Translations under genes and position numbers: made by a program
Notes under the pieces: generated by a model
Databases searched by the model: none
The model's input: only the letters and a program-made list of their open reading frames with translations
Told to the model about the DNA's origin: nothing
Assembly: GCA_051439505.1 (NCBI GenBank)
Contig: JBFRWI010000092.1
Span: 1-54,246, forward strand
Direction of reading: 5' to 3'
DNA: 54,246 nt
Source of the DNA: Hormoscilla sp.
GTDB lineage: Bacteria > Cyanobacteriota > Cyanobacteriia > Cyanobacteriales > Desertifilaceae
Part shown: positions 1-17,202 of the stretch, piece by piece
Numbering within the stretch: position 1 is the stretch's first letter
Layout of the letters: the number at the start of each line of letters is the position of its first letter

Positions 1-365
1 GCTTCTTCTGCTCGATTATTAAAATTTTTCCCAAATGACCCTACTTGAGACTTAAATTCCATAGCTGCAACCAGAACTTGCTCATCTATTATGAGAATAT
101 CCCATTTTTTTTCAGGACGAAAGTACCCAGGTAATTCCAGTGCTTTTGAATGAAAGATACAGTCTTCTGATATCCCCTTTTCTCGCGCAATTATTACCGT
201 AAGTTCCTCAAAAGCCGCCATTTGTTTACCACCAGTGACAGATGCTCTACCAAGGGATTGAGCATCACTCTTACTGCTTGCCTTTTGTTCTTGGTTTCTG
301 CGCGTATCCCAAAAATATTTTACGGCGTCTTCAATAAGTTTGTCGAGATTGTCTAGTACAGTCAT
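1..365 (-). CDS. XhoI/PaeR7I-family type II restriction endonuclease (3' end outside window)
   Basis: Not in the ORF track. Hand translation from the ATG at 365 gives MTVLDNLDKLIEDAVKYFWDTRRNQ...VTGGKQM...LPGYFRPEKKWDILI...EFKSQVGSFGKNFNNRAEEA, which carries the XhoI-family signature motifs. The start overlaps the MTase stop (ATGA). Confidence 0.85.
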   Translation of the reverse strand, partial: MTVLDNLDKLIEDAVKYFWDTRRNQEQKASSKSDAQSLGRASVTGGKQMAAFEELTVIIAREKGISEDCIFHSKALELPGYFRPEKKWDILIIDEQVLVAAMEFKSQVGSFGKNFNNRAEE

Positions 366-1663
366 TTTGTTAATAAAACCATATCTTCAAAGTAAATCTT
401 TCCTTTCTTGTATTGGTTAGATTTTGTATTCACATGTGCCATGTGACCGCGAATAATTTCTCGATTGACAATTTCACTCTTGACTCCTAAATTATTACCC
501 ATCTCTACGTAAATATCACCAAGCTTGATTTCATGCTCCTTAAAATAGGAAGATTGAACCACTATAATGGCTCGTGCATTATGCTTCAAGACTCTGATAA
601 TTTCTCTTAGAGACAATTCAATATCTCGGAAATACTGAAGCATATTAGGTAGGTAGTAGGAGGTCGCGGCTTTACTCCCATGTTTCTGTACGTTTTCTAG
701 CAACTGTAAACAAGTTTTACCCCAGGTGGAATTAATTTTGATAGATTTGTCTACGATCACAGGAGCCCCAATAGTGTTTTCCCTGATTTTTCTCAAAGTT
801 TGAGGGTCGAACATAATCAGAAGTTCCGGTCTCGTTGACATGGCGTAATCAATTCGCGTTAAATATGGAGGAGATGTTATCACTGCATCGATCGCATCGT
901 CTGGAAGGCAAAGATTGCGAGAGTCTGCTAAAAGTGGTAAATGCAAGATGGGATCTGTTATAGTAATCGAAGATAAATCTAAATCCCGAATCATCGAACG
1001 GGCAACTCTCTTAAATTCCGAGATAAGATCTGTTTCCCTTACCTCGGGTTTTTCCGATTGAGTTTTCACCCAAGTTGGGTTAGAACCACCTTTGTATCCA
1101 GCCAAATTACGGGCGGTTATAAATAATGCTGCTTTGAAAAATGCCTGAAAAGGATTGAGTTGAATTTTATCGGTGACAATCATTTTTAAGATTGCTCGCG
1201 ATAAGTGAGGTTCGGGATACTCTTGTGAATGAACGATCGCATATAACTTCCGAATCCCCCAGGAGAGGCTTGCAGACATAAAATCTCTCAGGGGGTCTGG
1301 GGTGGGGATTGAAATATCAAGGCTTTTACAGGTAATCTTTTGGGATAGTTCTGCTAGTAAATGTTTTTGGCCGAGCAAATAACCGCTCTTAGCATAGGCA
1401 AATACATTCATTACAGGATTGATTTCACATCCCAGGGTTGCTATTTCCCACCCCTGAGCAACCAGTCCTGTCGTGCCGCTGCCATTCCAAGGATCCAGCA
1501 GTAGAGGAGAGGAAGTAGAGTTAAGCTTTAGATAGGCGATCGCCGATGAAACAAAGGCTTCACTATAGCCAGCATAATAGGGATGCCAAGCATGTACCCC
1601 CATTCGTTCTTTGGGGCTGCGTTTAGCACTGGCCAAGGTGGGAAAAAGAGAAGTTTGCAGCAT
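362..1663 (-). CDS. Amino-DNA methyltransferase, probably N4-cytosine, alpha motif order
   Basis: N-terminal HxWHPYYAGYS; motif I LLDPWNGSGTT precedes catalytic ITSPPY. Translationally coupled to the REase. The start is uncertain because the ORF is open to 1717. Confidence 0.85.
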   Translation of the reverse strand: MLQTSLFPTLASAKRSPKERMGVHAWHPYYAGYSEAFVSSAIAYLKLNSTSSPLLLDPWNGSGTTGLVAQGWEIATLGCEINPVMNVFAYAKSGYLLGQKHLLAELSQKITCKSLDISIPTPDPLRDFMSASLSWGIRKLYAIVHSQEYPEPHLSRAILKMIVTDKIQLNPFQAFFKAALFITARNLAGYKGGSNPTWVKTQSEKPEVRETDLISEFKRVARSMIRDLDLSSITITDPILHLPLLADSRNLCLPDDAIDAVITSPPYLTRIDYAMSTRPELLIMFDPQTLRKIRENTIGAPVIVDKSIKINSTWGKTCLQLLENVQKHGSKAATSYYLPNMLQYFRDIELSLREIIRVLKHNARAIIVVQSSYFKEHEIKLGDIYVEMGNNLGVKSEIVNREIIRGHMAHVNTKSNQYKKGKIYFEDMVLLTK

Positions 1664-1726
1664 TGTCGGGTGTGGTCTTGCACCAGTTGGCATGTAAAAA
1701 GTTCGGGGGGATCCCACGAGAGGGGT

Positions 1727-1793
1727 CAGAAACCGGGTTTCTTAATTAAATTGTCGCTTTGGCGCCAGATTTTGTCGCAGAAACCCGGTTTCT
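1727..1793. repeat. AGAAACC(C)GG(G)TTTCT palindrome doublet (dispersed family)
   Basis: Other doublets at about 8967, 21302, 28269, 29416, 32215, 47759 and 51752. Confidence 0.8.
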
Positions 1794-1822
1794 TGTCAGT
1801 TTACTGGCGGACCGAGTGCTTG

Positions 1823-3013
1823 TCAGCTGCGATCGCCTGTCGGCGATCGCAGCAAAAAGCCAGCGGTTAGGGCCACAAAAGCAGCAGCATAAAAAACCCA
1901 TTCTATTGTGCCCAGTTCCAGGACGGGTCCCAGCAAAACCGGAGAGATGAACTGACCCAAAAAACCCGCTCCCGTGCCCGCAGCTAAAACGCTCGATCGC
2001 AGTTCTTTGGGAGAGCAGTCAGCTAAACTATTATAGAGAGTAGGCAGAGCAATGCCAAAGCCCGCGCCAAAGCTAATCGCAGCAACTAAGATCCAGTGGA
2101 GTTGATGCAAGAAAGGAATGCTGACCAAAGTCATCGCCATCAGCAGCAAACCAACCCCGATCGCCTTTTTGGGCCCCAAACGCGAAGCCAACTGTCTGGC
2201 ACCAAAAGCAGAGATAAAAGCAGCCCCCAGGGCGCGGGATGCTAACACCATCCCATTCATCAAAGCCCCCAATTCCAGGGTTTGCTTGAGATAAATGGGA
2301 GCATAGATGACCACAGCATACATGGCTACAGAAGTTAAAGCCACACTCAGCAATAGCCGCCAGGTTTGGGGATGTTTCAAGACTTGCAGCAGTTGCTGAT
2401 TGCTCTGGGTTTGGGACTTGTCAGAAGGCTGCCGCACGATATTATTATGAGTAGGGAAAACCGCGATCGCTAACAGAGCGAGGGGCAATGCTAAACCATA
2501 GAGTAAAAAAGCCATTCGCCAATTACTGGCTCCCACCCAGCCCCCCAGGGCCGGAAACAGGATCCCCGTAATGGTCAGGGTACTGGTAGCATAGCCCAGG
2601 ACCCGCGATCGGGCCTCACCTTCATACATCCGCCCCAGCAACCCCAGACTCGCCGCCGCCAGACCCCCGCTGGCCGCCCCCAACAGGGCCCGCGTCGCCA
2701 GCAGTGGCTCAAAACTATCTATCCAGGCCCCGGCCATGCCAAAGATAGCATATAATACCAGGGAAGGCACCAGCACTCGCACTGGACCAATCCGGTCTGC
2801 TAAAATACCTAGGGGGGGGCTGAACAGGGCGATGGTCAAGCAATGTATACTGACCAAATTGCCAGCTACCGCAGGATCGAACTGGAGTTGTCCGATGACA
2901 TCCGGTAACACCGGGGCCACCACACCCCCCGCCATCGTGGTCAGGGAACCAGCCACCAGCAGCACTGGCAGTCGCAAGCGGGTGGACCAAAAACTTTTGT
3001 GCAAAGTCAGCAT
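1823..3013 (-). CDS. MFS transporter
   Basis: About 12 hydrophobic segments; motif A GILADRIGPVRV. Confidence 0.9.
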   Translation of the reverse strand: MLTLHKSFWSTRLRLPVLLVAGSLTTMAGGVVAPVLPDVIGQLQFDPAVAGNLVSIHCLTIALFSPPLGILADRIGPVRVLVPSLVLYAIFGMAGAWIDSFEPLLATRALLGAASGGLAAASLGLLGRMYEGEARSRVLGYATSTLTITGILFPALGGWVGASNWRMAFLLYGLALPLALLAIAVFPTHNNIVRQPSDKSQTQSNQQLLQVLKHPQTWRLLLSVALTSVAMYAVVIYAPIYLKQTLELGALMNGMVLASRALGAAFISAFGARQLASRLGPKKAIGVGLLLMAMTLVSIPFLHQLHWILVAAISFGAGFGIALPTLYNSLADCSPKELRSSVLAAGTGAGFLGQFISPVLLGPVLELGTIEWVFYAAAFVALTAGFLLRSPTGDRS

Positions 3014-3179
3014 TATACCTAATAACTATCAGAACAATTAATCTGTAAACTTAAATTTAGATGATGGCATCAATGGCATTAAGTTTCATATATACCCTCA
3101 CTTCATTGGGCAACTGACAAGATCTGAGGTAAGATCCGACCTTGAACCCATAGATAATTAATATTCAGGAGAATTTGGG

Positions 3180-4262
3180 ATGGAACTGGCTACAACCCTG
3201 AAAAGCCAGACGATCGGCAATCACGTGCGCGAAGTTGGCATCAACCCCAATTACTGGTATCCCGTAGCTTGGGTACACCAGTTAAAACCAGGTCAGGTGA
3301 TGCCAGTGGTGGTTTGGCAACAGCCGATCGCCCTCTACCGGGACAGCAACGGCGGACTCCACGCCCTAGAGGATGCTTGTCCCCACAAAGGGGTCGCCCT
3401 CCATAAAGGTCAAGTGTCGAGCGAAGGAAACCTCTTGTGTCCCTATCACGGGTGGGAATTGAACGGGGAAGGCCAATGCGTCAACATCCCCTACCTACCC
3501 AAAGACCAAAAATTGCCCTGCGCCCAAGCCCGCAGCTATCCAGTTCGGGAAAAATATAACATCATCTGGATTTTTCCGGGCGATCGCGCCCTTTCTGAAA
3601 CGGTGGATCTGCCGCCAGTGCCAGAGTCGGAGGACCCCAACTGGTTGATGGTGGAAATTCCGGCCCACTTTCAAGCCCATTTTTCCATCTGCAACGAAAA
3701 TACGATGGATGTCTTCCACGGGTTTTTACACAAAAACTTAAATGGCTGGTTCGACCCGGTGCTGATCGACTTGAAACAATCAGACGGACGAGTCCGCGCT
3801 GACTATAAGGTATCCTATCAAGGTTGGTTGACTAAATTTATCGGCATCAGCTCTACGGGATCTGGGATCACCACCCGTACCGTCAGCATTGACTACCAGT
3901 ACCCTCACTATCACACAACTCTGGGGAAGGTGTCCTCCCTGTACCTGATGCGACTGCCCGTGGGGCCTGCGGAAACCAGGTCTTTTTCCCTGATGTTTCT
4001 GCAGTTGCGCCTGCCCAAATGGCTGCTAGGACCGGTCAAACCCCTAGTATCTAAGCTAGTCTGGCGCTTCTTGTTCAGGCCATTTCTCCACCAAGATATC
4101 CAGATGATCGAAAGCGAACAGCGTACCTATCTGGCTAACAAGAGGCGGCGCTATGTGGAAATTAACCCAGCCATTATCGCCCTCCAGCGGGTGATTGTCC
4201 GACAGTACGAACAATATATGCAACAATCATCTGTGACCGGAAACGGCACTGGTGACTTGTGA
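3180..4262 (+). CDS. Rieske [2Fe-2S] non-heme iron oxygenase (VanA/KshA-like alpha subunit)
   Basis: Rieske ligands CPHKG...CPYHGW; mononuclear iron motif ENTMDVFHGFLH plus a distal D (HQDIQMIE). Confidence 0.92.
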   Translation: MELATTLKSQTIGNHVREVGINPNYWYPVAWVHQLKPGQVMPVVVWQQPIALYRDSNGGLHALEDACPHKGVALHKGQVSSEGNLLCPYHGWELNGEGQCVNIPYLPKDQKLPCAQARSYPVREKYNIIWIFPGDRALSETVDLPPVPESEDPNWLMVEIPAHFQAHFSICNENTMDVFHGFLHKNLNGWFDPVLIDLKQSDGRVRADYKVSYQGWLTKFIGISSTGSGITTRTVSIDYQYPHYHTTLGKVSSLYLMRLPVGPAETRSFSLMFLQLRLPKWLLGPVKPLVSKLVWRFLFRPFLHQDIQMIESEQRTYLANKRRRYVEINPAIIALQRVIVRQYEQYMQQSSVTGNGTGDL

Positions 4263-4298
4263 AACGGGAATGGTGAGGAGCAGTAGAGGAGTAAATTT

Positions 4299-5588
4299 GT
4301 GCAAGTTGTTAAAGAGTATGTTCAGCAGCTTCGGAACGTCGGGCTTTATCCCGATAAGTATATTTGTCATGGCAAGCAGGGGAATATAGTTGATCTCGAA
4401 GATCCCGAGACAGGCACGCGGCGCCGCGTTCTCACCTTCTGCACAAACGATGTCTTGGGTTTAGTTCAGGAAGAGGCAGTCAAGCAAGCGGCCATAGATG
4501 CCATTCTCCAATATGGCACTTCCAATAGTTCTACCTCGGTGTTGAGCGGTCGCATCGACCTGCACAGACAGTTGGAGGAGGAAATATCGGCTTTCAAGCA
4601 TCTGCCCCACACGCAGCTATTCTTAAATGCCTGGATGGCAATGCAAGCCTTGATGGATGCTTTCTGTCACTTGGCGATGCCGGTTCCCGGTTTTCAACAT
4701 ACCCGCGAGACGTTAATACTTACCGATGTACTCAACCACGGTTGTATCGTATCGGCGGTGGTGAATGCGAACACCCGTTCGGGCAAGGTGTTCGGTCACT
4801 CTCCGGAGGTGCGGGTGAAACCCTACCGTCACTGCGATGTGCAGGATCTGGCCCGCAAACTCCGCCGCTATGTCAAACGGGGCGATCGGGTAATGGTGAT
4901 TTCCGATGCGGTGTTTTCAATGGACGGGGATATCGCCCCCTTACCGGAAATGCTAGATGTAATGGAAAATTATCCGGGCAGCGTCCTGGTGATGGATGAG
5001 GCCCATGCTAGCGGGGCGATCGGGCCTACGGGTAGAGGGATTTACGAACATTTTGGCATCTTACCTCAAGATGCGATCGCCCGGGATGTGGTGCCGATCA
5101 TCATGACCACCTTCTCTAAGTTTGCCGCCTCAGCGGGGGCCGCAATTAGTTCTGACCTGCCCGAACTGATCGATCTGCTGGATGTCTCGCCTACTTCCAT
5201 CGGCACCATTTCTCTGCCTGCGCCGACTACCGCCGCTGCTTTAGAGAGTATCCGTCAAGTGCGTCAGTTTCCGAGTCGGGTAAAAACTCTCCAGGAAAAT
5301 ACGCGCTACTTGCGATCGCGCCTGCTAGAAGCTAATTTCCACCCTATTGGCGAAACCAACGTCATTCCCGTACTGATGCCAGCAGAACTCGATCCGAAAG
5401 AATTTGGCAGACAAATGCTGGAAAAGCACGGAATTTGGATTTCTCCCATCTGGTTTATTGCCAAACCCCGCCTGCGCATTACTGCTAATGCCCTCCATAC
5501 TCGCGAGGATATAGATTGTCTGATCGAGGCCATGATCGCAGTGCGAGATGCTATAATTACACCCAAAACCATGATTTCTGCTGGCTAA
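4299..5588 (+). CDS. PLP-dependent alpha-oxoamine synthase (serine palmitoyltransferase/BioF/KBL fold)
   Basis: Motifs FCTNDVLGL, LNHGCI, SDAVFSMDGD, DEAHASG, TTFSK (PLP lysine) and PRLRIT. GTG start preceded by GAGGAG. Confidence 0.9.
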   Translation: MQVVKEYVQQLRNVGLYPDKYICHGKQGNIVDLEDPETGTRRRVLTFCTNDVLGLVQEEAVKQAAIDAILQYGTSNSSTSVLSGRIDLHRQLEEEISAFKHLPHTQLFLNAWMAMQALMDAFCHLAMPVPGFQHTRETLILTDVLNHGCIVSAVVNANTRSGKVFGHSPEVRVKPYRHCDVQDLARKLRRYVKRGDRVMVISDAVFSMDGDIAPLPEMLDVMENYPGSVLVMDEAHASGAIGPTGRGIYEHFGILPQDAIARDVVPIIMTTFSKFAASAGAAISSDLPELIDLLDVSPTSIGTISLPAPTTAAALESIRQVRQFPSRVKTLQENTRYLRSRLLEANFHPIGETNVIPVLMPAELDPKEFGRQMLEKHGIWISPIWFIAKPRLRITANALHTREDIDCLIEAMIAVRDAIITPKTMISAG

Positions 5589-5615
5589 TTGTCAATAACC
5601 AATAGCTAATAGCAA

Positions 5616-6743
5616 ATGACTGACTTCACTATCCAAGCGGTTACTACCCCAGCAGACCGGGAATTATTTCTGGATGTGCCAGTTCGGGTATATAAAAACG
5701 ATCCGAACTGGGTGCCGCCCCTGCGCAGTGCGATCGCCAAGCAGCTTTCTGAGACAAACCCATTCTTTGAGTACGGTCAACTGCAACAATTTATTGCCCT
5801 CTCGGGAGGGCAACCCCTAGGGCGGATAGTCGCTGCTATTAATCTTCGACTAATAGAACGGGAAGGCAAGCAAGTAGGTCTGTTTGGTTTTTTTGAATGC
5901 GTGGAAGATTTCAATATTGCCTCGGCCCTGTTAGAAACAGCTGGCCAATGGTTGCGCGATCGGGGGATGCGGGTGGCCCGGGGCCCGATCGACCTGTCAA
6001 CCCACAACAATTGTTTATTCTTGGTGGATGGGTTTGAATCTCCACCAACGATGATGATGCCTTACAACCCGCCTTACTATCCAGAATATCTGGTCAGAGA
6101 TGGGTGGCAAAAAGCCAAGGATGCCTATGCCTATGACTTTGATGTGGCCAAACCTCTAGACCCCAAATTTGAAAAGGGCTATCGCATTGCTTGTCAGTCG
6201 GGCATTACTTTCCGCCCCATCCGCACCAAAGGTGAAGGTTTTCAGCAAGACTGCCGCAGTCTATATCATCTGTTTACCACATGCTTTGCCCCGAATTGGA
6301 GTTCGACCCCGCGCACAGAGGCAGAGTTTCTGGAAGAAGCGCAGGATCTGCAAGAGATAGTGGATCCAGATCTCTTTCCGGTGGCGGAAGATAAGGGGAA
6401 AATGATCGGCTTTTGGATGGGGCTACCAGACTACAACATCGCCCTCAAACATGTCAATGGGAAGCTAAACTGGCTGGGCATATTAAAATTTCTCTGGTAT
6501 CGTCGTCAGATCGACCAAGCAAGAGTGCCTGCCATGTCTTCCCTACCAGAATATCGCCGGAAAATGGTGCCCCTGGCTTTAATTTATCTGGGGATGCAAG
6601 GGGGCAGCAAAAAGGGGAAACCTTACAAGAGGGCAGAATTATCCTGGATCTTAGAAGATAACATGGCCTCCCGCAAGCTGATCGAAGCATCAGGTGGGAA
6701 AATCTATAAAACCTATCGCATCTACGAAAAGGATTTATCGTAA
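5616..6743 (+). CDS. YghO-like tandem GNAT protein, resembling bacterial ceramide synthase bCerS
   Basis: Motifs DPNWVPPL, GRIVAAIN, GLFGFFE, RGPIDLS, MMPYNPPYY, LPDYN, ELSWILEDN and YKTYRIYEK are typical of this family. Confidence 0.8.
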   Translation: MTDFTIQAVTTPADRELFLDVPVRVYKNDPNWVPPLRSAIAKQLSETNPFFEYGQLQQFIALSGGQPLGRIVAAINLRLIEREGKQVGLFGFFECVEDFNIASALLETAGQWLRDRGMRVARGPIDLSTHNNCLFLVDGFESPPTMMMPYNPPYYPEYLVRDGWQKAKDAYAYDFDVAKPLDPKFEKGYRIACQSGITFRPIRTKGEGFQQDCRSLYHLFTTCFAPNWSSTPRTEAEFLEEAQDLQEIVDPDLFPVAEDKGKMIGFWMGLPDYNIALKHVNGKLNWLGILKFLWYRRQIDQARVPAMSSLPEYRRKMVPLALIYLGMQGGSKKGKPYKRAELSWILEDNMASRKLIEASGGKIYKTYRIYEKDLS

Positions 6744-6790
6744 TACAGGTTGAAACCAGTTAGTTAGCTGGAGATCGGAGTATCTGAAAA

Positions 6791-6948
6791 TGGCGTTGCA
6801 CAACGACGGGATGATAATAGAGCCACAAAAGCTTGTCATCGGAGGAAATCAATAGCTTATAATGAATTGTGACGACAAATAAAGCCAACAACTAACAACT
6901 GACAACTAACAACTAACAACTGACAACTATCATCCCCTGTGCAACTGA
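6791..6948. mobile_element. MITE-like element, copy 1 (contains AACTAAC/AACTGAC heptamers)
   Basis: Left end GGCGTTGCACAACGACGGGATGATA and right end TATCATCCCCTGTGCAAC form imperfect terminal inverted repeats. The same ends occur at 8008-8171 and 16966-17160. Confidence 0.6.
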
Positions 6949-6951
6949 AAA

Positions 6952-6987
6952 TAACTACGAACTACGAACTACGAACTACGAACTACT
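6952..6987 (+). repeat. Heptamer tandem repeat (AACTACG)x5, STRR-like
   Basis: Directly visible immediately before the ATG at 6989. Confidence 0.9.
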
Positions 6988-6988
6988 T

Positions 6989-7981
6989 ATGAAGGTACTG
7001 GTGACTGGAGCAAATGGATTTACTGGCTCTCACTTGGTGAAAGAGTTAGCTGCACGGGGTGATGAAGTAATAGGTTTGGTCCGCCAAACTAGCAATTTAC
7101 AGCGCCTCAGCGCGTGCCTGCAAGGTTGTCAAGTACAATTAGTTTACGGAGATATCACTGACAGAAAAGTACTAGAAGATGCGATCGCCTCTGTAGACTG
7201 GGTGTTTCATACGGCAGCATATGTAGAATTAGGGTTGGTTAATGCTGCCCAAATGGAAAAGGTAAATGTGGAGGGCACCCGCACGGTGTTAGAAGTGGCC
7301 AAAGCTGCTGGGGTGCAAAAGCTGGTTTATTGTAGCACGATCGGGGTCTTTGGGGACACGCAAGGAGAGGTGGTAAATGAAACTTTTATCAGGAAGCAGA
7401 AGGACTTTGCTTCAGCATACGATCGCACGAAATATCTAGCGCAACAGTTAGTGGATGAATTTGCCCAGCAGGGGTTGCCAGTAGTAAGCTTGTTACCATC
7501 GGGAATTATGGGTGGAGATGACCCCCATTTTGGTCCCGTAATTGCCCAATTTATGCAAGGAAAGTTAAAACTGTGGGCGGGGGGCGATCGCATCACGGGG
7601 ATAGTCCATGTTGACGATTTAGTCAAGGCCACTATCTTGGCAGCAGAAGGAGGAAAACAGGGAGAACATTATATAATTTCGGCTGGGGACTTGACAACCA
7701 GAGAAATGTTTGAGATCCTAAGTAAGGAGACGGGGATAAAAGTACCGGGGGAAGCTCCTAAACCGATAGTCAGATTGTTAGGAAATGTATTAGATCCCAT
7801 AGGAAGGCTGTTATCATGGCAGCCACCCCTGAGTCGGGAGCGAGTACATTATATATATGACAGGTGCGTGCGAGTGTCGGCGAGTAAAGCGCGTCAGGAA
7901 TTGGGTTGGCAACCCCGTTCGGTAGAAGAAACCCTGCGGGATATTGTCAAAGAGATGAAAGAAGCAGGAGATAGTATATAA
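6989..7981 (+). CDS. Extended SDR, NAD(P)-dependent epimerase/dehydratase/reductase (DFR/HpnA-like)
   Basis: Rossmann motif TGANGFTG, FHTAA, NVEGT and catalytic YDRTK. Confidence 0.92.
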   Translation: MKVLVTGANGFTGSHLVKELAARGDEVIGLVRQTSNLQRLSACLQGCQVQLVYGDITDRKVLEDAIASVDWVFHTAAYVELGLVNAAQMEKVNVEGTRTVLEVAKAAGVQKLVYCSTIGVFGDTQGEVVNETFIRKQKDFASAYDRTKYLAQQLVDEFAQQGLPVVSLLPSGIMGGDDPHFGPVIAQFMQGKLKLWAGGDRITGIVHVDDLVKATILAAEGGKQGEHYIISAGDLTTREMFEILSKETGIKVPGEAPKPIVRLLGNVLDPIGRLLSWQPPLSRERVHYIYDRCVRVSASKARQELGWQPRSVEETLRDIVKEMKEAGDSI

Positions 7982-8007
7982 TAATATTGCTATAAGATTC
8001 TTGTTTC

Positions 8008-8171
8008 GGCGTTGCACAACGACGGGATGATGAGGGCTGCTAATTGCTTATACGAAGTGCGCGACGCAGGAGCGCTATTGTCAATGGTTAATTGAGAACG
8101 TCATTTGTAGTAATGAATAGATAGCTTTACTCTTTTCAATTAGCAATTATCATCCCAAAAATGTGCAACTG
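8008..8171. mobile_element. MITE-like element, copy 2
   Basis: Ends are GGCGTTGCACAACGACGGGATGAT and ATCATCCCAAAAATGTGCAAC; the interior differs from copy 1. Confidence 0.6.
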
Positions 8172-8222
8172 TTTCTATAGCTGGACAGTGCGAAGTTCTC
8201 CAGTATTCACTAAGCCAGGAGA

Positions 8223-8879
8223 GTGCTGATGGATAGAGCAGTATTTTACAATGATGTTCGCAATGACTTGTTTGATGGAAAATTGAGTCAAAAGCAGGTC
8301 GATGGCATGGAAACAATCCTGAACTTTTGGGAAGATCCACCGGTGGAACCTGTTGATGAGTTTAAGGTCAACTGGGATATCCGTAGCATCGGATGGTTGG
8401 CCTACATGTTGGCGACAACCTACCACGAGACCGCATTTACAATGCAACCTATCGCCGAGTATGGAACTGTTGCATACTTCACAGACCTCTACGAAAATCG
8501 AGCTGACCTGGGCAACGATCGAGAGGGAGACGGTGCTAAGTTTCGGGGTCGGGGCTATGTTCAGATTACTGGACGTCGTAACTATACTAAAATGACGCCG
8601 ATCGTCCGTGAATTTTACCCCGACAGCCCTGATTTCACTGAACATCCAGAGGCAGTGATGGACGATAGATATGCAGCAGTCATCATGTTCTATGGCATGT
8701 TCTTGGGCATATTCACCGGTAAGGCTTTGAAAAACTACATCGGCGATCCAGAAAAAGGACAAATTGTTGATTACTACCATGCCAGAAAAATCATCAATGG
8801 TTTGGACCAGGCTGAAAAAATAGAGGGCTATGCCAAGAAATTCGGACAGGCTTTACACGACGCTGGGGCTGTTGTGTAG
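8223..8879 (+). CDS. Glycoside hydrolase family 19 (chitinase/endolysin-like)
   Basis: Motifs AYMLATTYHET (catalytic E), MQPIAEYG, FRGRGYVQITGRRNY and ARKIING. Confidence 0.88.
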   Translation: MLMDRAVFYNDVRNDLFDGKLSQKQVDGMETILNFWEDPPVEPVDEFKVNWDIRSIGWLAYMLATTYHETAFTMQPIAEYGTVAYFTDLYENRADLGNDREGDGAKFRGRGYVQITGRRNYTKMTPIVREFYPDSPDFTEHPEAVMDDRYAAVIMFYGMFLGIFTGKALKNYIGDPEKGQIVDYYHARKIINGLDQAEKIEGYAKKFGQALHDAGAVV

Positions 8880-9025
8880 AACAGGTATCGCGATCCTAGG
8901 GAGGAGATAGGTTTTATTTCCTCATAAGTGGGGCACTCAAACCTAATCCTTCACTGTCCCGTTATCAGAAACCCGGTAACTCCTGAGAAACCGGGTTTCT
9001 GGGTTAGAGAAAGATGCAATATAGT

Positions 9026-9784
9026 TTACGAACCTTCGGGTTTGAGGATACCATCTTCCAGGTAAGCAACCCGATCGGCCACATCAATAATCCTGGGGTC
9101 GTGGGTTACCATCAAGACAGTGCAACCTTGTTCCTTGGCCAGTTGACGCAATAACTCAATCACGTTATGTCCGCTGTGGGAGTCCAAAGCAGCAGTAGGT
9201 TCGTCGGCCATGATTAACTGAGGACTGCCAGCTAAAGAACGGGCGATCGCGACCCGTTGTTTCTGTCCTCCAGAGAGATCCCGAGGGCGGGACTTAACCT
9301 TATCTTTTAGCCCCACCGCTGCCAACAAATCCCGTGCTTGATGTCTGGCGGTTCTGCCGCGAATGCCTTTAAGATTGAGAGCAAGTTCGATATTTTCACC
9401 CGCAGTCAGGGCCGGAAACAAGTTAAACCCCTGAAAAATAAAGCCAATGTTTTGCAGGCGGAAGCGGGACAGCTTAGTGCGAGACAATAGGGTAATCTCT
9501 TGTCCTAATAGATAAATTTTGCCAGCCGTAGGCGTCAGCAGTCCAGCTAAAATTGAGAGTAAAGTAGTTTTCCCCGAACCAGATGGTCCCATCAACAGTT
9601 GGATACTGCCCTTGGGGATATGCAGATCGATGCCCTTCAGGGCCTGAAAGCGGGCAGCACCCGCACCGAACACCATCTCTATGCCAGTAGCAGAGATAGT
9701 AGATGGGTGACTGTCAGCGAGATCGATAGTAGTAGCACCCCCCATGTGGATTTGCGAAAACCCAGCAATTTGAGTATTACTCAT
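9026..9784 (-). CDS. ABC transporter ATP-binding protein (DevA/LolD-like)
   Basis: Walker A GPSGSGKT, signature LSGGQKQRVAIAR, Walker B region ADEPT and VTHD. Confidence 0.95.
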   Translation of the reverse strand: MSNTQIAGFSQIHMGGATTIDLADSHPSTISATGIEMVFGAGAARFQALKGIDLHIPKGSIQLLMGPSGSGKTTLLSILAGLLTPTAGKIYLLGQEITLLSRTKLSRFRLQNIGFIFQGFNLFPALTAGENIELALNLKGIRGRTARHQARDLLAAVGLKDKVKSRPRDLSGGQKQRVAIARSLAGSPQLIMADEPTAALDSHSGHNVIELLRQLAKEQGCTVLMVTHDPRIIDVADRVAYLEDGILKPEGS

Positions 9785-9862
9785 AAGTCTAATAAAGTCA
9801 ATAATTGTACGTGGTTAATTGCGATTGCGCTGCGCGCACAGGCTACGCTACGCGAACGAGTT

Positions 9863-11110
9863 TTAGGCTTTGAAGACGATCGCCGGATCGACGCGAGTCA
9901 CTTTTTGAATGGCGAAGAAGGCCGAACCGACACACATCAGCACAGTAATTCCCAAAACTCCGGCAGCAGATAGGGGCGTGATTAAAATCATAATTCCCTG
10001 AGTTGTCAAGGCCCAAGATGCTAACCCCAAGCAAAGTCCCATACTGGGAATATATCCGAGAACTGCCATCCACAGGGCTTGCTCGATAATAACACTGTAA
10101 ATTACCCAGTCAGACGCCCCCATTGCTTTGAGCGTTCCAAACTCTTTGAGATGATCGGATACAGAAGAGTAGAGGATCTGACCGACAACTACCATACCCA
10201 CAAGCACGCCCACTGCCGCACCCAAACCGAGAATAAATCCAATGCCGCTGCGCTGCTGCCAGTAGTCCCGGGTCTGGTTAGCCATTTCCGCACGAGTATA
10301 GGCCCGGGTATCTGGCAAGGCCGCTTCTAACCGCCGTTTGAGTGCCTGTAGATCCTCCCCCGGTTTGGCCCGAATTAACACGTAGACGATCGGGTCTGTT
10401 AAGTTTAAGGGTTTGGGAGGAGAAACTGTTGATGTAGAGGTAGTTTCTTCCTTCTCGTAAGTAGTGACGCATTTAATATCCCCCTCGGGTAGCAACTTGC
10501 AGTTCAGCTTAGAAGTGACTCCAGCATTGAGATAGGCGTTGGCGCTTTTCAAGGAGGTAAACACGAAGGGACTCGATACGATCGACTGAGTTTCTTTTGT
10601 TAAGCCTACCAACCGCACTGGCAAGGAGCCAATTTCTGCCCGATCGCCCACACCTCGGACGTGCAGAGAATCTAAATTACTTTCATCGACGATCGCGGTG
10701 TAAGGTTCTTTCAGGGCCTGCAAGCTTCTGGGAGTAACATTGCCAGGTAAAAACAATTGCCCCCCTGGGTTGAAACCGAATACCTTCACAGGAGTCAGTT
10801 CCGCCCCCGGAACATTCCATTGAGCTATTCCCCTCATCAAGGGTTCCGCCCGCGAGACCCCTTGCACCTGTCGTGCCAGTAAAGAGTACTCTAACAGCAG
10901 GGGTTTTGTCAATTCTAAATGCAACATTTCCTCCGAGGCTACCCAGATGTCTGCTGGGGAATTTTCGATCAACTGCACTGTCGAACGAGTAAACCCCTTG
11001 AGGATGCCCGTCTGTATCGTCACCAGACTGACGGCAAACATAATCCCTGCCTGGGCTACGAGGAAGCGGGGAATGTCTTCCAATAGGTTCTTGCGGGCGA
11101 TCGATGCCAT
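9863..11110 (-). CDS. ABC transporter permease, FtsX/MacB-like (DevC-like)
   Basis: One N-terminal TM, a large periplasmic domain, then three C-terminal TMs with LKEFGTLKAMGAS and VTRVDPAIVF. Confidence 0.92.
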   Translation of the reverse strand: MASIARKNLLEDIPRFLVAQAGIMFAVSLVTIQTGILKGFTRSTVQLIENSPADIWVASEEMLHLELTKPLLLEYSLLARQVQGVSRAEPLMRGIAQWNVPGAELTPVKVFGFNPGGQLFLPGNVTPRSLQALKEPYTAIVDESNLDSLHVRGVGDRAEIGSLPVRLVGLTKETQSIVSSPFVFTSLKSANAYLNAGVTSKLNCKLLPEGDIKCVTTYEKEETTSTSTVSPPKPLNLTDPIVYVLIRAKPGEDLQALKRRLEAALPDTRAYTRAEMANQTRDYWQQRSGIGFILGLGAAVGVLVGMVVVGQILYSSVSDHLKEFGTLKAMGASDWVIYSVIIEQALWMAVLGYIPSMGLCLGLASWALTTQGIMILITPLSAAGVLGITVLMCVGSAFFAIQKVTRVDPAIVFKA

Positions 11111-11287
11111 AAAAAATAACCTATCTACACAACTTCTCTACAATTCTACATATCTTAACATCAGCTCTGAATAATTGCTTATTGACAATTTACCCTCCTA
11201 ATTGATAATTATTGCCCGCTCCGAAGTAATGGATTAATTGCTCGCACAATTCCCCATTTTCAATTCCCAATTTTCAATTCCCAATTT

Positions 11288-11599
11288 TCAACAATTAGGA
11301 TCGATGATGATGTCTGGGCAGTTCGGGTATTTGAGGATGAAGTGGTTGGCCCCAATATTGATTTGGGCGATCTGGGATATTTGCTGAGATAACCCGGCCC
11401 TCACTTCTGGGTTAGGACAGTGAATTATCAGGTTTTCGGTATCCGTCATCCATTCTAGCTTGCAGAGTTGGGTGAGTGGAATTTCTGCTTTGATTTGCCT
11501 GAGTCCTTCACTCAGTTGCTTGAACTTCTGTAACCATTGGGACTCTTGCAATTCTTTCTCTAGTTTACTCCTCAGTGGGTTCTGTTCTTCTTGGTTCAT
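11288..11599 (-). CDS. Hypothetical protein
   Basis: 103-aa ATG ORF with AAGGA upstream and plausible composition. Confidence 0.65.
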   Translation of the reverse strand: MNQEEQNPLRSKLEKELQESQWLQKFKQLSEGLRQIKAEIPLTQLCKLEWMTDTENLIIHCPNPEVRAGLSQQISQIAQINIGANHFILKYPNCPDIIIDPNC

Positions 11600-11691
11600 C
11601 GGATCCTTAAATAAATCTAATGTTTGCTGGTGATGATTTTCATCATAGCATAAATTGGAATTAAATGAGCGAGCGAATTAAAAATTAAGAC

Positions 11692-12120
11692 ATGAACAAG
11701 TTAGCTTTGACATTTGCAGTCACCCTGGCATTAACTGCTGCACCAGCTCAAGCAGGGTTTGAGATTGCCAAGCACAATCAAAATCTGAGTAAGAGTATAC
11801 AGTGTATTGATGCGATGGGTTTTGAACTCATCGCCGACAATGTTTTTGCGGCCTTGAACCCACAAGTAGGCCGTCGGCAAATTCGTCCCGAGGAGATATA
11901 CTATGCAGCACAATGGCAGACAATCAGAAATGCTCTAGAGCCAAATGGTTGCCTGTTAGTGGAAAGTTTTTATCAGGATCCCCTTGTTGCCGAAAACTTG
12001 GCAGACAGAGTTTTTTATGCCTTGCATCCGGAATTAAACTGGCGCAAAATCAGACCTCATGAAGTGCAATATGCCCGGGAATGGAGCATCATCAGAAATG
12101 CGTTAAATATGAGGAGGTAG
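11692..12120 (+). CDS. Secreted hypothetical protein with two ~35-aa internal repeats
   Basis: Signal peptide ending AQA. Repeats are ADNVFAALNPQVGRRQIRPEEIYYAAQWQTIRNAL and ADRVFYALHPELNWRKIRPHEVQYAREWSIIRNAL. Confidence 0.75.
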   Translation: MNKLALTFAVTLALTAAPAQAGFEIAKHNQNLSKSIQCIDAMGFELIADNVFAALNPQVGRRQIRPEEIYYAAQWQTIRNALEPNGCLLVESFYQDPLVAENLADRVFYALHPELNWRKIRPHEVQYAREWSIIRNALNMRR

Positions 12121-12180
12121 CGATTTTTCTCGTTCCCTGACTTATGGGAACGAGAAAATTCTCTACATTATAAATTGATA

Positions 12181-13119
12181 TTACAGCATCCGCCACAGTT
12201 GGGCGATCGCCTGTTTCCGGTCCCGACGAGTAAGGGCGATCGCCGCCCGTGTTAGCATATAGGGCATAGCAAATAGTATGCCCAAATATGTCCGCCAGGC
12301 ACTGTAGGAAAATAGCGATCTCGATAGAGGAGATACGCCCCAAAAGCGATTCACCGAACAGACCATTTCATTTCCCAAAGCCGTCACTTCATGCCACCAA
12401 CCGGCAGGAATAAAGAGGGTTTCCCCTTGATGCAATATTACTTCCTGCTTGTATTGTAGCGCTTCTTTTAACTTCGGAAAAGCTTGCATATCTGGCTTTT
12501 CTGGGTACACCTGACTAAACCAAGCACGCAACTTTAAGCCGTGGCGCAAATGCACGGAAACAGGAAAGGGATAAAGATTAGCTGTCTGGGAACTGGGGAA
12601 CAGCACCACTTTTTTGGCACCATGCAGTTGCATTAATGTCCCATCCAGGGTATCGTAATGTAAGGCTTCCACGTGACCTCCCGGTCCCGCCCACATATTT
12701 AAGTCGCTAGCGGGTTTCTCTAAACCCAACTTCTCGGCGATCTTTATTCGAGATGCTTTTTCCTCCAAAGATGTATCTTTTAGGGAACATTTAGCTAAGT
12801 AAATGTCCTGTTCGTGGGCTGTCTGGTTGCGCAACATTTCTGCATAGGTAGTAAAAGGCAAACTTTTCGTGGACACCCCACTGCCAATGTTTTCCCATTG
12901 GCGTTTGTCCAATTTGTACCTCTGATTTCCGTACCACCGGGACAGAAACTCCCACTCACCCAACTCTTGGCAAAGATAGTCCAAACTCCAGTCTTCGCAG
13001 TCCGCCAGTAATCCTTTAATCACTACCGGGTTGCCCGGTTTTTGATATTCTCTCACAAATCTTTCGGGCGTGAGTTCTGATATCTCCTCCCTACAGATAG
13101 GATTTGTTACTTTATTCAT
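12181..13119 (-). CDS. JmjC/cupin-like Fe(II)/2-oxoglutarate hydroxylase
   Basis: Motifs PVVIKG, LHYD (HxD), GAKKVVLF and GETLFIPAGWWHEV. The ATG at 13119 has GGGAGG upstream; the ORF is open to 13149. Confidence 0.9.
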   Translation of the reverse strand: MNKVTNPICREEISELTPERFVREYQKPGNPVVIKGLLADCEDWSLDYLCQELGEWEFLSRWYGNQRYKLDKRQWENIGSGVSTKSLPFTTYAEMLRNQTAHEQDIYLAKCSLKDTSLEEKASRIKIAEKLGLEKPASDLNMWAGPGGHVEALHYDTLDGTLMQLHGAKKVVLFPSSQTANLYPFPVSVHLRHGLKLRAWFSQVYPEKPDMQAFPKLKEALQYKQEVILHQGETLFIPAGWWHEVTALGNEMVCSVNRFWGVSPLSRSLFSYSAWRTYLGILFAMPYMLTRAAIALTRRDRKQAIAQLWRML

Positions 13120-13212
13120 TGTAGATGTCTTCCTCCCGTTAGCCCACATTAATCCGATCGCCCGCCAGGCAGCAGGGGGTGTCCCACCCCCTGCTAATAA
13201 CAGATGATATCA

Positions 13213-14898
13213 TTAGTTGACATCATCTGGCAGCCTCATTTCCTTTTCTACGACCAACCCCTCCAAAAAATTACGGTCTTCGCTGATATGGGCAAATTTA
13301 AGTTGAGAATCAGGTATTCCCCGCGCTAACTGGCGCTGACGCAAAATGTCAAAACTTCCCTTTTCTAGCAGGCGCAGGCGCGGCGGCGGGATGTCACTTT
13401 GCCGCGAAATTGCATAGTGGGTGTTGTTTTCCCCTAACAGGCGATCGCACTTTGCCAGTAATGCTTGAGGGTCCGACAGGGTATCGCCGTCAGCGAGTTC
13501 GATATTAATCAGATAGCGGGCGGGAAAGTCCCGTTCCGAGAGGGTAATACAGAAGTCCTCCAAATTGAGGTGAAACTCCTCTTGCAGGGCATGAAGTACC
13601 CGAGTAACGTGATGTTCGTTAGTTTTCTCCGTGGTACTGGACATTTGTCCCCCTTGGCGATGGCGAAATGTAATCAAGGGTGCTTGCTGATAAAATCCTA
13701 CTACCTCGATGACATCGCCAATGTCGTAGCGATAAAATCCACTGTAGGTAGTTGTCAGGATGCGATACCTTTGTCCTACCTGCACTTCCCTCGCTAGTAA
13801 AGTTTGCGGATGTTCTACTCCCCATTGGTCCTCGGGAACGAATTCAAAAAAGCCACTCTCGATCGCCAAAATGCTACCATCGGTATTCACGTCCGGGTAG
13901 ATGCTAAACATTCCTTCCGCCGAGGAGAAGACAACTCCGAAAATTGCCGTATCCCCAAAATACTCGGGAAACCGCTGAAAGTAAAAATCAGAAGTTCCCC
14001 CCCTCGCCGTTGCTACCACCGCCAGATTGGGCCATGCTAATTTAGGAGTTAGCTTTCCGTGGGATTGTAAAATTTCCTGGAGTTCCCGGGCCCTCCCTGG
14101 GTTGGCAGTCCACTGGCGTTCCAGTTGCGATCGCAGTTCTGGTTCCATCTCCAACCAGGGGGCGATCGACCCCTGGGCGATATCGGCAATTAAACTTTCG
14201 GCATACTGACTCAAATAGTTGCAGGTCCGCAGAATCAACATGGGAAAATTCGCGATCGTGCCCCCCATATCCGGGTTAACCAAGGCAAACAACAGGGCCA
14301 CATAATGGCGAGTCAGACTATCACTTAACTTGACAGTTTCGTAGGGGTGGGCAAAGAATTGGGAAAACAGACGCTTATCCAGACGTAGAACTCCGGCGCT
14401 GGATGGCCCATAATCGATTCCCCCAGGAGTACGTCCCCATTGTTGTACTGAGTTAGTTACTAGCAGTTTACCAAACTTCTGCCCCCGTTTTGCCAATCCC
14501 TCTGCTAAAAATCCCATGCTGACTAGACTTGCATCCCGGACTATGCTTTGGGATTTCTTCGTAGTGGGAATCAGTTTTTGCTTACCCGTTGACCCGCTAG
14601 TCAGAGTCATGTATACTACTTTTTGGGAAGTCAGGATATGCTTTTCTCCCTGGGCAATCTTTTCCAGGTACGGTTCGTAGCTGCTGTAGGGCCGGATGGG
14701 GATGCGATCGCGAAACTGGTCTATAGTCTTCACTTCAGACAACCGGTCAACGCGACCCAATTCAGTATCTTGATGGGCCCGTAATAGGTTAAAGAGAAAC
14801 TTTTCCTGAACCGCCTGCACCTGAAGAGTTTTGGCGACAAACCTCTCCTTACTATACCTTGCTATCTTTGTCAATAACGGCAGCAATAAATTTGTCAT
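13213..14898 (-). CDS. GH3-family acyl acid amido synthetase (ANL superfamily)
   Basis: Motifs TSGSTGKQKLIP, FSSAEG, FFEFVP, GFYRYDIGDVI and SQLKF. Confidence 0.92.
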   Translation of the reverse strand: MTNLLLPLLTKIARYSKERFVAKTLQVQAVQEKFLFNLLRAHQDTELGRVDRLSEVKTIDQFRDRIPIRPYSSYEPYLEKIAQGEKHILTSQKVVYMTLTSGSTGKQKLIPTTKKSQSIVRDASLVSMGFLAEGLAKRGQKFGKLLVTNSVQQWGRTPGGIDYGPSSAGVLRLDKRLFSQFFAHPYETVKLSDSLTRHYVALLFALVNPDMGGTIANFPMLILRTCNYLSQYAESLIADIAQGSIAPWLEMEPELRSQLERQWTANPGRARELQEILQSHGKLTPKLAWPNLAVVATARGGTSDFYFQRFPEYFGDTAIFGVVFSSAEGMFSIYPDVNTDGSILAIESGFFEFVPEDQWGVEHPQTLLAREVQVGQRYRILTTTYSGFYRYDIGDVIEVVGFYQQAPLITFRHRQGGQMSSTTEKTNEHHVTRVLHALQEEFHLNLEDFCITLSERDFPARYLINIELADGDTLSDPQALLAKCDRLLGENNTHYAISRQSDIPPPRLRLLEKGSFDILRQRQLARGIPDSQLKFAHISEDRNFLEGLVVEKEMRLPDDVN

Positions 14899-15028
14899 TC
14901 AATCTCCGGGGTTAGTCAAATATCCGATCTGTAACCCACCAACATATCTGATTCTGGTGTCAATGTCAAGAGAAAAAGGCTTAATCAAAAATTAACCAAA
15001 AAAAAATCAGACTTGGGAAGGATAATGC

Positions 15029-15057
15029 TTGACAGTTACGATCAAGGGAGTTAAAGT
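15029..15057 (+). promoter_or_regulatory. Putative sigma70-type promoter
   Basis: TTGACA-17 nt-TAAAGT. Confidence 0.5.
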
Positions 15058-15287
15058 GGGAGAGAGCCTGTAAAGTCCGAGGATATCGGTCTTATCCCAA
15101 TAGGGAAGCCCGATGGTGATGCGTCAAAATCAGATGTCAGAATGGCATCATTAGATGAGGCATTGGGAATTGATGCCAATCAGAAACCACCAGGAGCGAA
15201 GTTGACGGGAAACAGCCACCGGTGCTGCTGTGCTGATGACGTCAGATGCTTCTGAGACTGATCGGGCGGAACGAGTAGATTGAAGAT

Positions 15288-16574: not shown

Positions 16575-16592
16575 GGAGTCCAAAGGCGCTAG

Positions 16593-16835
16593 CTAATTGA
16601 GATCCCAGAGACTGATAAATGCGATCGCCTCCCGGTTGGGTTTCGGAAAGAAACCCAACCGACTTTTGTTTATATGGAGCGTAAGCTGCAGTGCAGCTGT
16701 AGTGCATGGAAATTGCATAGGGCGATCCTCTATCGCTTCCATTGCATCTCCCGATCGCAAGCATTCTTGCACTGCTGTCGCTGTTTGATAATGAGAGTTA
16801 ACTGCTAACCAGTCCCAATCTTTTTCTCTTGGCAT
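16593..16835 (-). pseudogene. Truncated DUF29-like gene (N-terminal ~36 codons)
   Basis: Strong RBS AGGAGG. DWDWLAVNSHYQTATAVQECLRSGDAMEAIE resembles DUF29 N-termini, after which the frame runs into unrelated repeat sequence. Confidence 0.55.
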
Positions 16836-16965
16836 TATTACCTCCTATTTTACCCCTCTGGCCCGGGGCACGGCGCTAGTTACATTTTTCTCTTAACCGC
16901 TACCTTTTCGTGCCCCTACGGGCGATCGCAGATATTTTTGGGCACTTATTTTGGTTGCATAATTT

Positions 16966-17160
16966 GGCGTTGCACATTTTGGGGATGATAGCAGTCAATG
17001 GTTGCAAATTGCCGTTCCCAGGCGGGAGCCAGGGAACGAGGAAAATTGAATAAGAGTTATTTGTCTATTTATGGGCAGTCATAACTATTTCAATTGACCA
17101 TTCGCAATTTTCAATTTGCAAGCCATCACATCCCGTATCATCCCGTCGAAGTGCAACGCC
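16966..17160. mobile_element. MITE-like element, copy 3 (inverted relative to copies 1-2)
   Basis: Ends are GGCGTTGCACATTTTTGGGGATGATA and TATCATCCCGTCGAAGTGCAACGCC. Confidence 0.6.
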
Positions 17161-17202
17161 CACAAATTTTTTCGCGACCAGGGTAGCCCTAGTCGCTAAG
17201 TA

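Follow-up and report, generated by a model that had tools for sequence, protein, structure and literature searches.

What does a gene cluster make in which an alpha-oxoamine synthase (AOS) operon stands beside a ligase of the GH3 family, whose best-known members conjugate plant hormones, and do its genes belong together at all? The question is raised by positions 1823-14898 of a contig of the cyanobacterium Hormoscilla sp. (GCA_051439505.1, JBFRWI010000092.1; the whole analysed stretch of 54,246 nucleotides is called the window below). Nine named genes there are intact open reading frames (ORFs), with families as named in Pfam and NCBIfam scans: the AOS, a GNAT N-acyltransferase, a short-chain dehydrogenase/reductase (SDR), a Rieske oxygenase, a JmjC oxygenase, a GH3 amido synthetase, a major facilitator superfamily (MFS) transporter, and an ABC ATPase with its permease. 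A preliminary description had read them as one cluster for an oxidised amino-lipid, free of nonribosomal peptide synthetases and polyketide synthases, and co-occurrence and synteny support this. We hold with moderate confidence that they form one conserved cluster for a ceramide-like amide lipid that is oxidised, capped with an amino acid at a carboxylate, and exported. The cluster itself is real and widespread, and it is apparently undescribed.

The cluster genes are inherited together

We compared 40 related genomes, of which 18 contain an AOS orthologue (73-93% identity; 90-93% within the genus) and 22 do not. The GNAT gene was present in all 18 AOS-positive relatives and in none of the 22 negative ones, the presence or absence of the pair agreeing in 40/40 genomes. 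Orthologues of GH3 (14/18), the Rieske oxygenase (14/18, at E below 1e-140) and the JmjC oxygenase (8/18) were each found in 0/22 AOS-negative relatives, while the ABC permease occurred in 17/18 positive and 5/22 negative ones. When one genome per family was taken outside the family of Hormoscilla, GH3 was present in 10/14 versus 0/13 and JmjC in 4/14 versus 0/13, the latter not significant. In a sample of the phylum (200 cyanobacterial genomes at least 90% complete), AOS was found in 16, GH3 in 14/16 versus 0/184 and JmjC in 5/16 versus 0/184; six of the 16 AOS genomes overlap with the set of relatives, and 82 of the 200 come from a single negative family. For these reasons, and since kin genomes are not independent, formal p-values overstate the association. 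Correlations between AOS and partner distances (Mantel p 0.001 for GH3, 0.069 for JmjC) lacked a housekeeping control, and we give them no evidential weight.

For synteny we took the 80 best AOS loci out of 198 and their flanks of up to 10 kb, many of which were shorter. Within 10 kb of AOS we found Rieske in 67 loci, MFS in 44, GNAT in 40, GH3 in 30, SDR in 26, the ABC ATPase in 16, the permease in 13 and JmjC in 12. Where flanks were long (40 loci), we found Rieske in 34, MFS in 26, GNAT in 24, GH3 in 20, SDR in 18, the permease in 9 and JmjC in 5. Three further ORFs of the segment, a GH19-like gene and ORFs of 103 and 142 aa, recur near AOS in 1, 0 and 0 of the 80 loci, compared with 12-67 for the other eight named genes. 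The grouping is therefore beyond chance, and the three ORFs are passengers outside the pathway. GH3 and JmjC thus both co-occur (in the relatives and the phylum sample) and co-localise (in the 80 loci) with the AOS triad, contrary to what would have refuted the preliminary reading.

All nine named genes lie together within about 12 kb in two loci, from Nostocales (L058) and Coleofasciculus (L114). The usual layout consists of a dimetal gene, an Mpo1 gene and a fatty-acid hydroxylase gene (leftward), then GH3 with or without a JmjC or AspH-type gene, MFS, Rieske-AOS-GNAT-SDR, and the ABC genes. Relative to this layout, the window is rearranged. In three complete genomes (G014, G023 and G028) the cluster is broken up, with most pieces retained at separate sites. 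Even where the modules are scattered in this way, GH3, JmjC, Rieske and the dimetal-like gene turned up solely in AOS-positive genomes. Named strains with the cluster include Spirulina subsalsa, Heteroscytonema crispum, Nostoc minutum and Aetokthonos hydrillicola. A locus labelled Tatlockia (Legionellaceae; L054) also holds it; its GH3 nests among Chroococcidiopsis-type cyanobacteria, and it is probably a mis-binned contig.

The core is related to the bacterial ceramide pathway

The core comprises the AOS (4299-5588, plus strand; PF00155), the GNAT (5616-6743, plus) and the extended SDR, a candidate ketone reductase (6989-7981, plus). The GNAT aligns over its full length with YghO of E. coli BL21 (30% identity over 378 aa, E 8e-59) and is the only match in the genome for 6/6 YghO-family references; no sequence relative of it was found among solved structures. 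In passages of PMC9386255, yghO (ECD_02850) is listed as homologous to the N-acyltransferase that Caulobacter requires for dihydroceramide, and parts of PMC11087976 lay out the scheme of bacterial ceramide synthesis by Spt, bCerS and CerR. The SDR is the top match in this genome for 4/4 SDRs of Spt-type loci, and it stays with AOS-GNAT where the Rieske gene has moved or been lost. The AOS-GNAT-SDR order recurs in two plasmid loci, from Rubrobacter and Streptomyces. Judged from sequence, the core corresponds in composition and order to Spt-bCerS-CerR and appears homologous to the bacterial ceramide pathway.

Like that pathway, as known from Caulobacter and from the yghO-aasR-epi-acpR-spt genes of E. 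coli BL21, the cluster combines an AOS with a YghO-family N-acyltransferase and an extended SDR, and its genes are clustered and co-inherited. Unlike it, the cluster has an AOS outside the Spt clade with remodelled loops, no dedicated acyl carrier protein (ACP) or acyl-ACP synthetase, and no LptF/G or head-group transferase among its recurrent neighbours. It adds GH3, Rieske, JmjC and MFS, and in relatives also the fatty-acid hydroxylase, Mpo1 and dimetal-oxygenase-like genes. The loci of other YghO relatives do contain LptF/G or phosphotransferase genes. Among the families present in at least 3 of the 80 loci, we recognised no glycosyltransferase, kinase or CDP-alcohol transferase, as judged from the leading sequence of each family, with 12 families scanned against Pfam. 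The cluster would work like a ceramide pathway but does not appear to be a member of the Spt-defined one.

The AOS probably represents a subfamily of its own, neither Spt nor a cysteate enzyme. Its residues His147, Asp233, His236, Lys274 and Arg393 are invariant in 64 aligned sequences; the pyridoxal-phosphate lysine, stacking histidine, Asp/His pair and carboxylate-binding arginine that the AOS family requires are all present. The predicted structure is a confident model (pLDDT 92.6), and the nearest solved structure by sequence is Sphingobacterium Spt (E 2e-39). The protein scored below the NCBIfam cut-offs of the BioF, Kbl, HemA, CqsA and Spt models. In a FastTree phylogeny of 103 rows (88 of 150 representatives, with fragments and long fusion proteins left out; SH-like support only, long-branch effects possible), six representatives share its branch: P0121, P0122, P0124, P0125, P0126 and P0129. 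All but P0121 are distant members (35-49% identity), at least one of them from a Pseudomonadota metagenome-assembled genome. A metagenome scan for the subfamily gave four loci among the matches listed, cyanobacterial in look, and an ESM Atlas search with the AOS returned only the AOS family itself.

The loops of the AOS bear on its amino-acid substrate. The GSR motif of Spt is replaced by S-[C/T]-S in this family, and the FTAS loop by GT[I/C/V]S. At the selectivity position (V79 of ThAOS, Ser in Spt), the 78 AOS orthologues have Cys (53), Thr (24) or Ala (1). Passages of PMC11906848 report that this position governs the choice of amino acid, with Thr going with Gly (ALAS) or Ala (ThAOS V79T), and that ThAOS V79T is active with Ala only and V79C is inactive. 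From these replacements, serine looks doubtful as the substrate.

Two published proteins were considered as members of this family. A separate BioF-like paralogue of 395 aa lies on contig C2 of the Hormoscilla genome; the length and annotation of the Nostoc punctiforme 'Spt' Npun_R3567 (394 aa) fit this paralogue instead of the 425-437 aa AOS family (no direct sequence comparison), and it is judged to be BioF in passages of PMC8895605. The second AOS of Moorea producens in the same source has 571 aa, unlike the family here, so the cerebroside reported there is not creditable to the cluster.

GH3 as a candidate head-group ligase

The GH3 gene (13213-14898, minus) encodes three GH3 domains (PF03321, PF23571 and PF23572). 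Its nucleotide motifs I-III are intact (TSGSTGKQK, FSSAE and GFYRYDIGD), and structures of plant GH3 enzymes align with it over its full length (E 6e-38). Among curated bacterial GH3 models it matches OlsH alone (NF052613; 91.9 bits against a cut-off of 620, not passed), an enzyme that according to parts of PMC12493201 joins a free fatty acid to ornithine. The OlsH/OlsI ornithine-lipid pathway of Singulisphaera, which includes OlsC/OlsE hydroxylases, resembles the present system in having a bacterial GH3 with intact nucleotide motifs, here accompanied by OlsC-like and fatty-acid-hydroxylase-family neighbours. It differs in that the GH3 here fails the OlsH cut-off and co-occurs strictly with the AOS-GNAT pair.

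By its homologies, the GH3 is more likely to join an amino acid to a carboxylate. Since it was never found without AOS, the favoured acid is an oxygenase-made carboxylate on the AOS/GNAT product. Genes for amino-acid supply adjoin GH3 in five loci (L070:1585-2937, L155, L099:3313-4017, L115 and L156). Cysteate synthase is among them in two lineages, within one cluster (L070; 441 bits against a cut-off of 325) and directly upstream of GH3 in genome G017; a racemase of the Asp/Glu/cysteate type adjoins GH3 in two related loci (L099 and L115), and a weak match to a ThrC-like pyridoxal-phosphate enzyme does so in G014. Four genomes carry 2-3 cluster-type GH3 copies: G051 and G173 (3), G113 (2 in tandem, L266) and G054 (2). 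Supply genes and copy number are consistent with a variable amino-acid conjugation, and the supply genes are the best leads to the amine substrate.

A second, distant GH3 of 511 aa (28% identity) lies elsewhere in the genome (C36:2550-5426), unrelated to the cluster. It ends an apparent run of three genes, the other two being ORFs of 245 and 204 aa.

Oxygenases inside and outside the window

The Rieske non-heme iron oxygenase gene (3180-4262, plus; PF00355) was described earlier as the first of the triad operon with the MFS gene divergent from it, which ORF positions and family scans bear out. Among curated models, its protein comes closest to SdmA (NF052579), an oxidase that converts a sterol methyl group to a carboxylate. 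Of the sterol C4-demethylase pair SdmA/SdmB, the first is the best model for the Rieske protein and the second the second best for the SDR, although both scores (227 and 154 bits) are far under the cut-off of 600. By analogy, the likeness to SdmA suggests methyl-to-carboxylate chemistry on a lipophilic substrate. The JmjC/Cupin_8 Fe(II)/2-oxoglutarate oxygenase gene (12181-13149, minus; PF13621, E 8e-39), 63 bp downstream of GH3, would be an optional tailoring gene.

Four more families recur near AOS in the relatives' loci. These are a PF04116 fatty-acid hydroxylase (36/80), an Mpo1-like dioxygenase (PF06127, 22/80), a PF04909 protein (22/80) and an OlsC/LpxO-like hydroxylase (PF05118, 10/80); protein clustering gave 32, 21, 19 and 10, respectively. 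The fatty-acid hydroxylase gene is present in 17/18 AOS-positive relatives, being split in one of them and interrupted by an internal stop in another, and there is a more distant copy in 1/22 negative ones. The PF04909 gene is present in 11/18 versus 0/22. As members of lipid-tailoring families, the PF04116, PF06127 and PF05118 neighbours count in favour of a lipid product.

The PF04909 protein resembles dimetal oxygenases. The motifs DADAH and DYGHWD occur in 19/20 ORFs, with the metal ligands present and Pro replaced by Gly relative to the ARO motif (N-terminal D-x-H, C-terminal D-x-P-H-x-D/E) given in passages of PMC13154177. Its best single-sequence match in the PDB is DitZ, while a profile search puts the ACMSD decarboxylase first. 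We also considered it as an amide hydrolase that undoes the GH3 reaction; the motifs fit dimetal oxygenases better. In the Hormoscilla genome, the PF04909 gene begins at the edge of contig C88, and the hydroxylase and Mpo1 genes are absent from the assembly. Contigs of the two deepest matching sequencing runs cover a relative's hydroxylase and Mpo1 genes at a depth like that of their neighbours. The missing pair is thus probably an assembly gap.

Other genes join the cluster occasionally. A B12 radical-SAM gene does so in 6/80 loci (L060, L062, L063, L065, L067 and L114) and a fatty-acid desaturase gene in 4/80 (L063, L083, L091 and L100), each with a homologue elsewhere in this genome. Same-genus loci contain a variable block downstream of the SDR that is absent from the window (L021:762-7629, L022:12091-17311, L024:697-8452 and L023:4026-8592). 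According to Pfam, it encodes a double methyltransferase, the aspartate decarboxylase PanD, a ureidoglycolate-lyase-like protein and TauD/GBBH oxygenases; asparagine-synthase-like and PhyH-like ORFs were added by sequence inspection. The block has the appearance of a betaine or osmolyte-type module in its own right, inserted into the cluster.

Export genes

The MFS transporter (1823-3013, minus; PF07690, E 6e-64), a candidate exporter, is better linked to the cluster than the ABC pair. The latter consists of a LolD/MacB/DevA-like ATPase (9026-9784, minus; Pfam and NCBIfam matches) and a MacB/FtsX-type permease without an adaptor gene (9863-11110, minus; PF12704 and PF02687), both loosely linked. 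The permease and ATPase types are those of DevBCA glycolipid exporters, but the pair falls below the DevA (261.6 against 295.8 bits) and DevC (156.6 against 290.35 bits) cut-offs and has no adjacent DevB. No DevB homologue was found in 12 stretches around permease orthologues, of which 5 belong to AOS-negative genomes and 7 to AOS-positive ones; a DevB gene lies near AOS in 1/80 loci, and the two of this genome are on other contigs. The proposal that the ABC pair is part of the cluster holds in so far as it adjoins AOS in 13/80 loci, and is weakened by its presence in 5/22 AOS-negative relatives, by its mostly standing alone and by the failed cut-offs. The pair seems to resemble adaptor-less LolCDE-type extractors, and may be a general transporter often parked at the cluster.

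Proposed pathway

The gene content, order, homologies and co-inheritance described above are established, and from them we infer the product. First, the AOS would condense a small amino acid (Ala or Gly more probably than Ser) with a fatty acyl thioester, probably a housekeeping acyl-ACP, to give an alpha-aminoketone. The YghO/bCerS-type GNAT would then N-acylate the aminoketone, and the SDR would reduce the ketone. In a fourth step, the Rieske oxygenase, optionally with the JmjC, OlsC/LpxO-like, fatty-acid hydroxylase, Mpo1 and dimetal enzymes, would hydroxylate or shorten the chains and create a carboxylate. GH3 would adenylate this carboxylate and join an amino acid to it, giving a head group without phosphorus or sugar. 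Finally, the MFS transporter, perhaps with the adaptor-less ABC pair, would extract the product from the cytoplasmic membrane. The first three steps are quite probable, and better supported than the order of the fourth and fifth.

A number of observations weigh against a single amide lipid made in this way. The AOS passed none of three Spt models (172.5/640, 156/500 and 110.6/670 bits), its active-site and substrate loops are remodelled relative to Spt, and in the FastTree phylogeny it stands on a separate long branch, apart from the Spt (four Spt-type), BioF, Kbl and HemA references. The guess at its amino acid is weak, since the commonest residue at the selectivity position is Cys and ThAOS V79C is inactive. 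The identity of the SDR to those of Spt-type loci is only 23-31%, and HpnA and SdmB, its best and second-best curated models, are both below cut-off and both above CerR-like. Two near-complete or complete genomes (G014 and G023) have GH3 without the cluster Rieske gene, although they retain the hydroxylase-Mpo1-dimetal module, and three (G026, G039 and G040) have Rieske without GH3. The coupling of Rieske to GH3 is therefore not obligatory. Shared inheritance, moreover among kin that are not independent, shows a shared function and not a single product.

Alternative explanations

This last point leads to the alternative that survives best, which we nevertheless consider unlikely: two linked products, with AOS-GNAT-SDR making a ceramide-like lipid and GH3 separately making OlsH-like N-acyl amino acids from free fatty acids, to be modified by the fatty-acid hydroxylase, OlsC-like, JmjC, Mpo1 and dimetal enzymes. 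OlsH, the only curated bacterial model matched by the GH3, takes a free fatty acid (passages of PMC12493201). Broken clusters often leave GH3 with the hydroxylase-Mpo1-dimetal module (G014, G016, G019 and G027), GH3 is present in 11/11 relatives with the dimetal gene, and four genomes contain 2-3 GH3 copies. However, an independent pathway would not need AOS, and GH3 without AOS was found in 0/22 and 0/184 genomes. Neither an O-acyltransferase of the OlsI/OlsA type nor an alpha/beta-hydrolase was recognised among the recurrent neighbours in the 80 loci.

We think it rather improbable that the cluster makes a diffusible small-molecule signal or allelochemical, with a short or medium acyl chain as in CAI-1, conjugated by GH3 and turned over by oxygenases as plant jasmonate is. 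A drug-efflux-type MFS gene linked in 44/80 loci, a patchy distribution (16/200 genomes), many oxygenases, GH3 expansions and the lack of LptF/G-type genes among recurrent neighbours would all fit such a signal. Conversely, the CqsA-type model gave the AOS 92 bits against a cut-off of 428, the fourth-lowest of 12 AOS-type matches; among the core recurrent families we recognised neither a sensor nor a regulator; and YghO/bCerS relatives act on long-chain bases (parts of PMC11087976 and PMC9386255).

The preliminary description had further suggested that GH3 activates the fatty acid for AOS, as the cluster has no ACP or acyl-CoA ligase. The local absence of ACP, acyl-CoA ligase and DevB was confirmed, with none on contig C92 in genome-wide searches; the 80 AOS loci contain no ACP homologue and weak AMP-binding matches in five, and GH3 does form an acyl-adenylate. 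GH3 enzymes pass this adenylate to an amine, however, and AOS enzymes need a thioester substrate. The thioester need is described in passages of PMC13692747, and according to parts of PMC12493201 characterised GH3s, OlsH included, form amides with amino acids and no thioesters. In 4/18 AOS-positive relatives, three of which are 97-100% complete, and in 2/16 AOS-positive genomes of the phylum sample no GH3 was found; it is dispensable in some AOS genomes and thus not an obligatory acyl activator. Other contigs of this genome encode a single ACP above cut-off and 15 AMP-binding domains. Activation by GH3 is therefore very improbable, and acyl-ACP seems the likelier acyl donor.

Hardly any weight remains for a sulfonolipid (capnine) pathway, in which the AOS would be a cysteate fatty-acyltransferase (CFAT) and which the cysteate synthase of L070 had brought into consideration. 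The CapA/CapB (CFAT, SulA)/CapC system likewise combines an AOS with a remodelled amino-acid pocket and an SDR, and cysteate synthase genes occur in the L070 cluster, directly before GH3 in G017, and on another contig of this genome. CFAT/SulA use a trans-subunit Lys280/281 (passages of PMC13692747), but the AOS here lacks this Lys: the position corresponds to residue 304, as mapped by motif and not by CFAT alignment, and is Ile, Cys or Val in 78/78 orthologues. Cysteate synthase is above cut-off in 2/41 genomes, which are 2/19 of the AOS-positive ones. The copy in this genome (contig C72, L166:9442-10761; TIGR03844, 524 bits, above cut-off) lies amid duplicated NAD-salvage genes, near a methyltransferase. 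With the Lys absent and cysteate synthase rare, we rejected this pathway for the AOS family as a whole.

A chance juxtaposition of the AOS operon with unrelated GH3, JmjC and ABC genes, to which the passengers between AOS and the GH3-JmjC pair 6-10 kb downstream and the ABC pairs of AOS-negative genomes might point, has next to no probability, being refuted for GH3 and JmjC, which never occur without AOS and join the other seven genes within about 12 kb in L058 and L114, and partly true for the ABC pair.

Other features of the window

The signature motifs of the enzymes are intact (Rieske CxH...CxxH, JmjC HxD...H, SDR GxxGxxG and YxxxK, and Walker A and LSGG of the ATPase). The GH3, JmjC and ABC genes had been described as a convergent block; they are all present on the minus strand, but not as one continuous run, because the permease and JmjC genes are 1.07 kb apart with two unrelated ORFs between them. 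These are the 103-aa (11288-11599, minus) and 142-aa (11692-12120, plus) passengers, which have no Pfam, NCBIfam or PHROG match; the former is common to three same-genus loci, ahead of the permease. The third passenger, the GH19/endolysin-like gene (8223-8879, plus; PHROG 181, E 2e-29), lies between the SDR and ABC ATPase genes and has paralogues on three other contigs. The gap between GNAT and SDR (6887-6988) is filled by short tandem repeats with units of 7 and 6-7 bases (ACAACTA/ACAACTG, then ACTACGA). We take these to resemble the STRR-type repeats of cyanobacteria. Low-complexity overlapping ORFs at 48205-48637, with a repeated 7-residue unit (AKLNVEL-like), are probably tandem-repeat DNA and no gene.

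Contigs from a DNA run, perhaps the source sample itself and so not independent, are near-identical to the window and span 30/30 bins of positions 1-19900. Two RNA runs gave contigs only from relatives of about 93% identity, one of which (2855 nt) spans Rieske, AOS and the start of GNAT. The second run also covers silent flanks, so the RNA runs show nothing on expression.

Significance

Passages of PMC8895605 state that no genetic basis or enzyme has been reported for cyanobacterial sphingolipids, the candidate of that paper being BioF. We found no description of the cluster in the literature on bCerS and cyanobacteria or on cyanobacterial ceramide lipidomics, although bCerS genome lists may hold cyanobacterial entries, and no literature on GH3, cyanobacteria and biosynthetic gene clusters with acyl and Rieske. 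The ceramide homology of the triad and the three further usual members outside the window were absent from the preliminary description; new relative to a ceramide-type core is the link to GH3, oxygenases and export.

The cluster opens a route to sphingolipid-type lipids that can be tested genetically, in a phylum for which the literature searched gives no such pathway. It also offers an uncharacterised AOS subfamily and a bacterial GH3 clade found only with AOS, and up to six oxygenase families would act on one scaffold made without nonribosomal peptide or polyketide synthases. Tentatively, about one in twelve of the sampled cyanobacteria might make a new sphingolipid-like class with a non-serine (1-deoxy-type) backbone, a methyl group turned into a carboxylate and an amino-acid head group installed by GH3. 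Such a phosphorus-free amide lipid could be a biomarker, or account for membrane adaptation, in cyanobacteria of mats, soil crusts and sponges.

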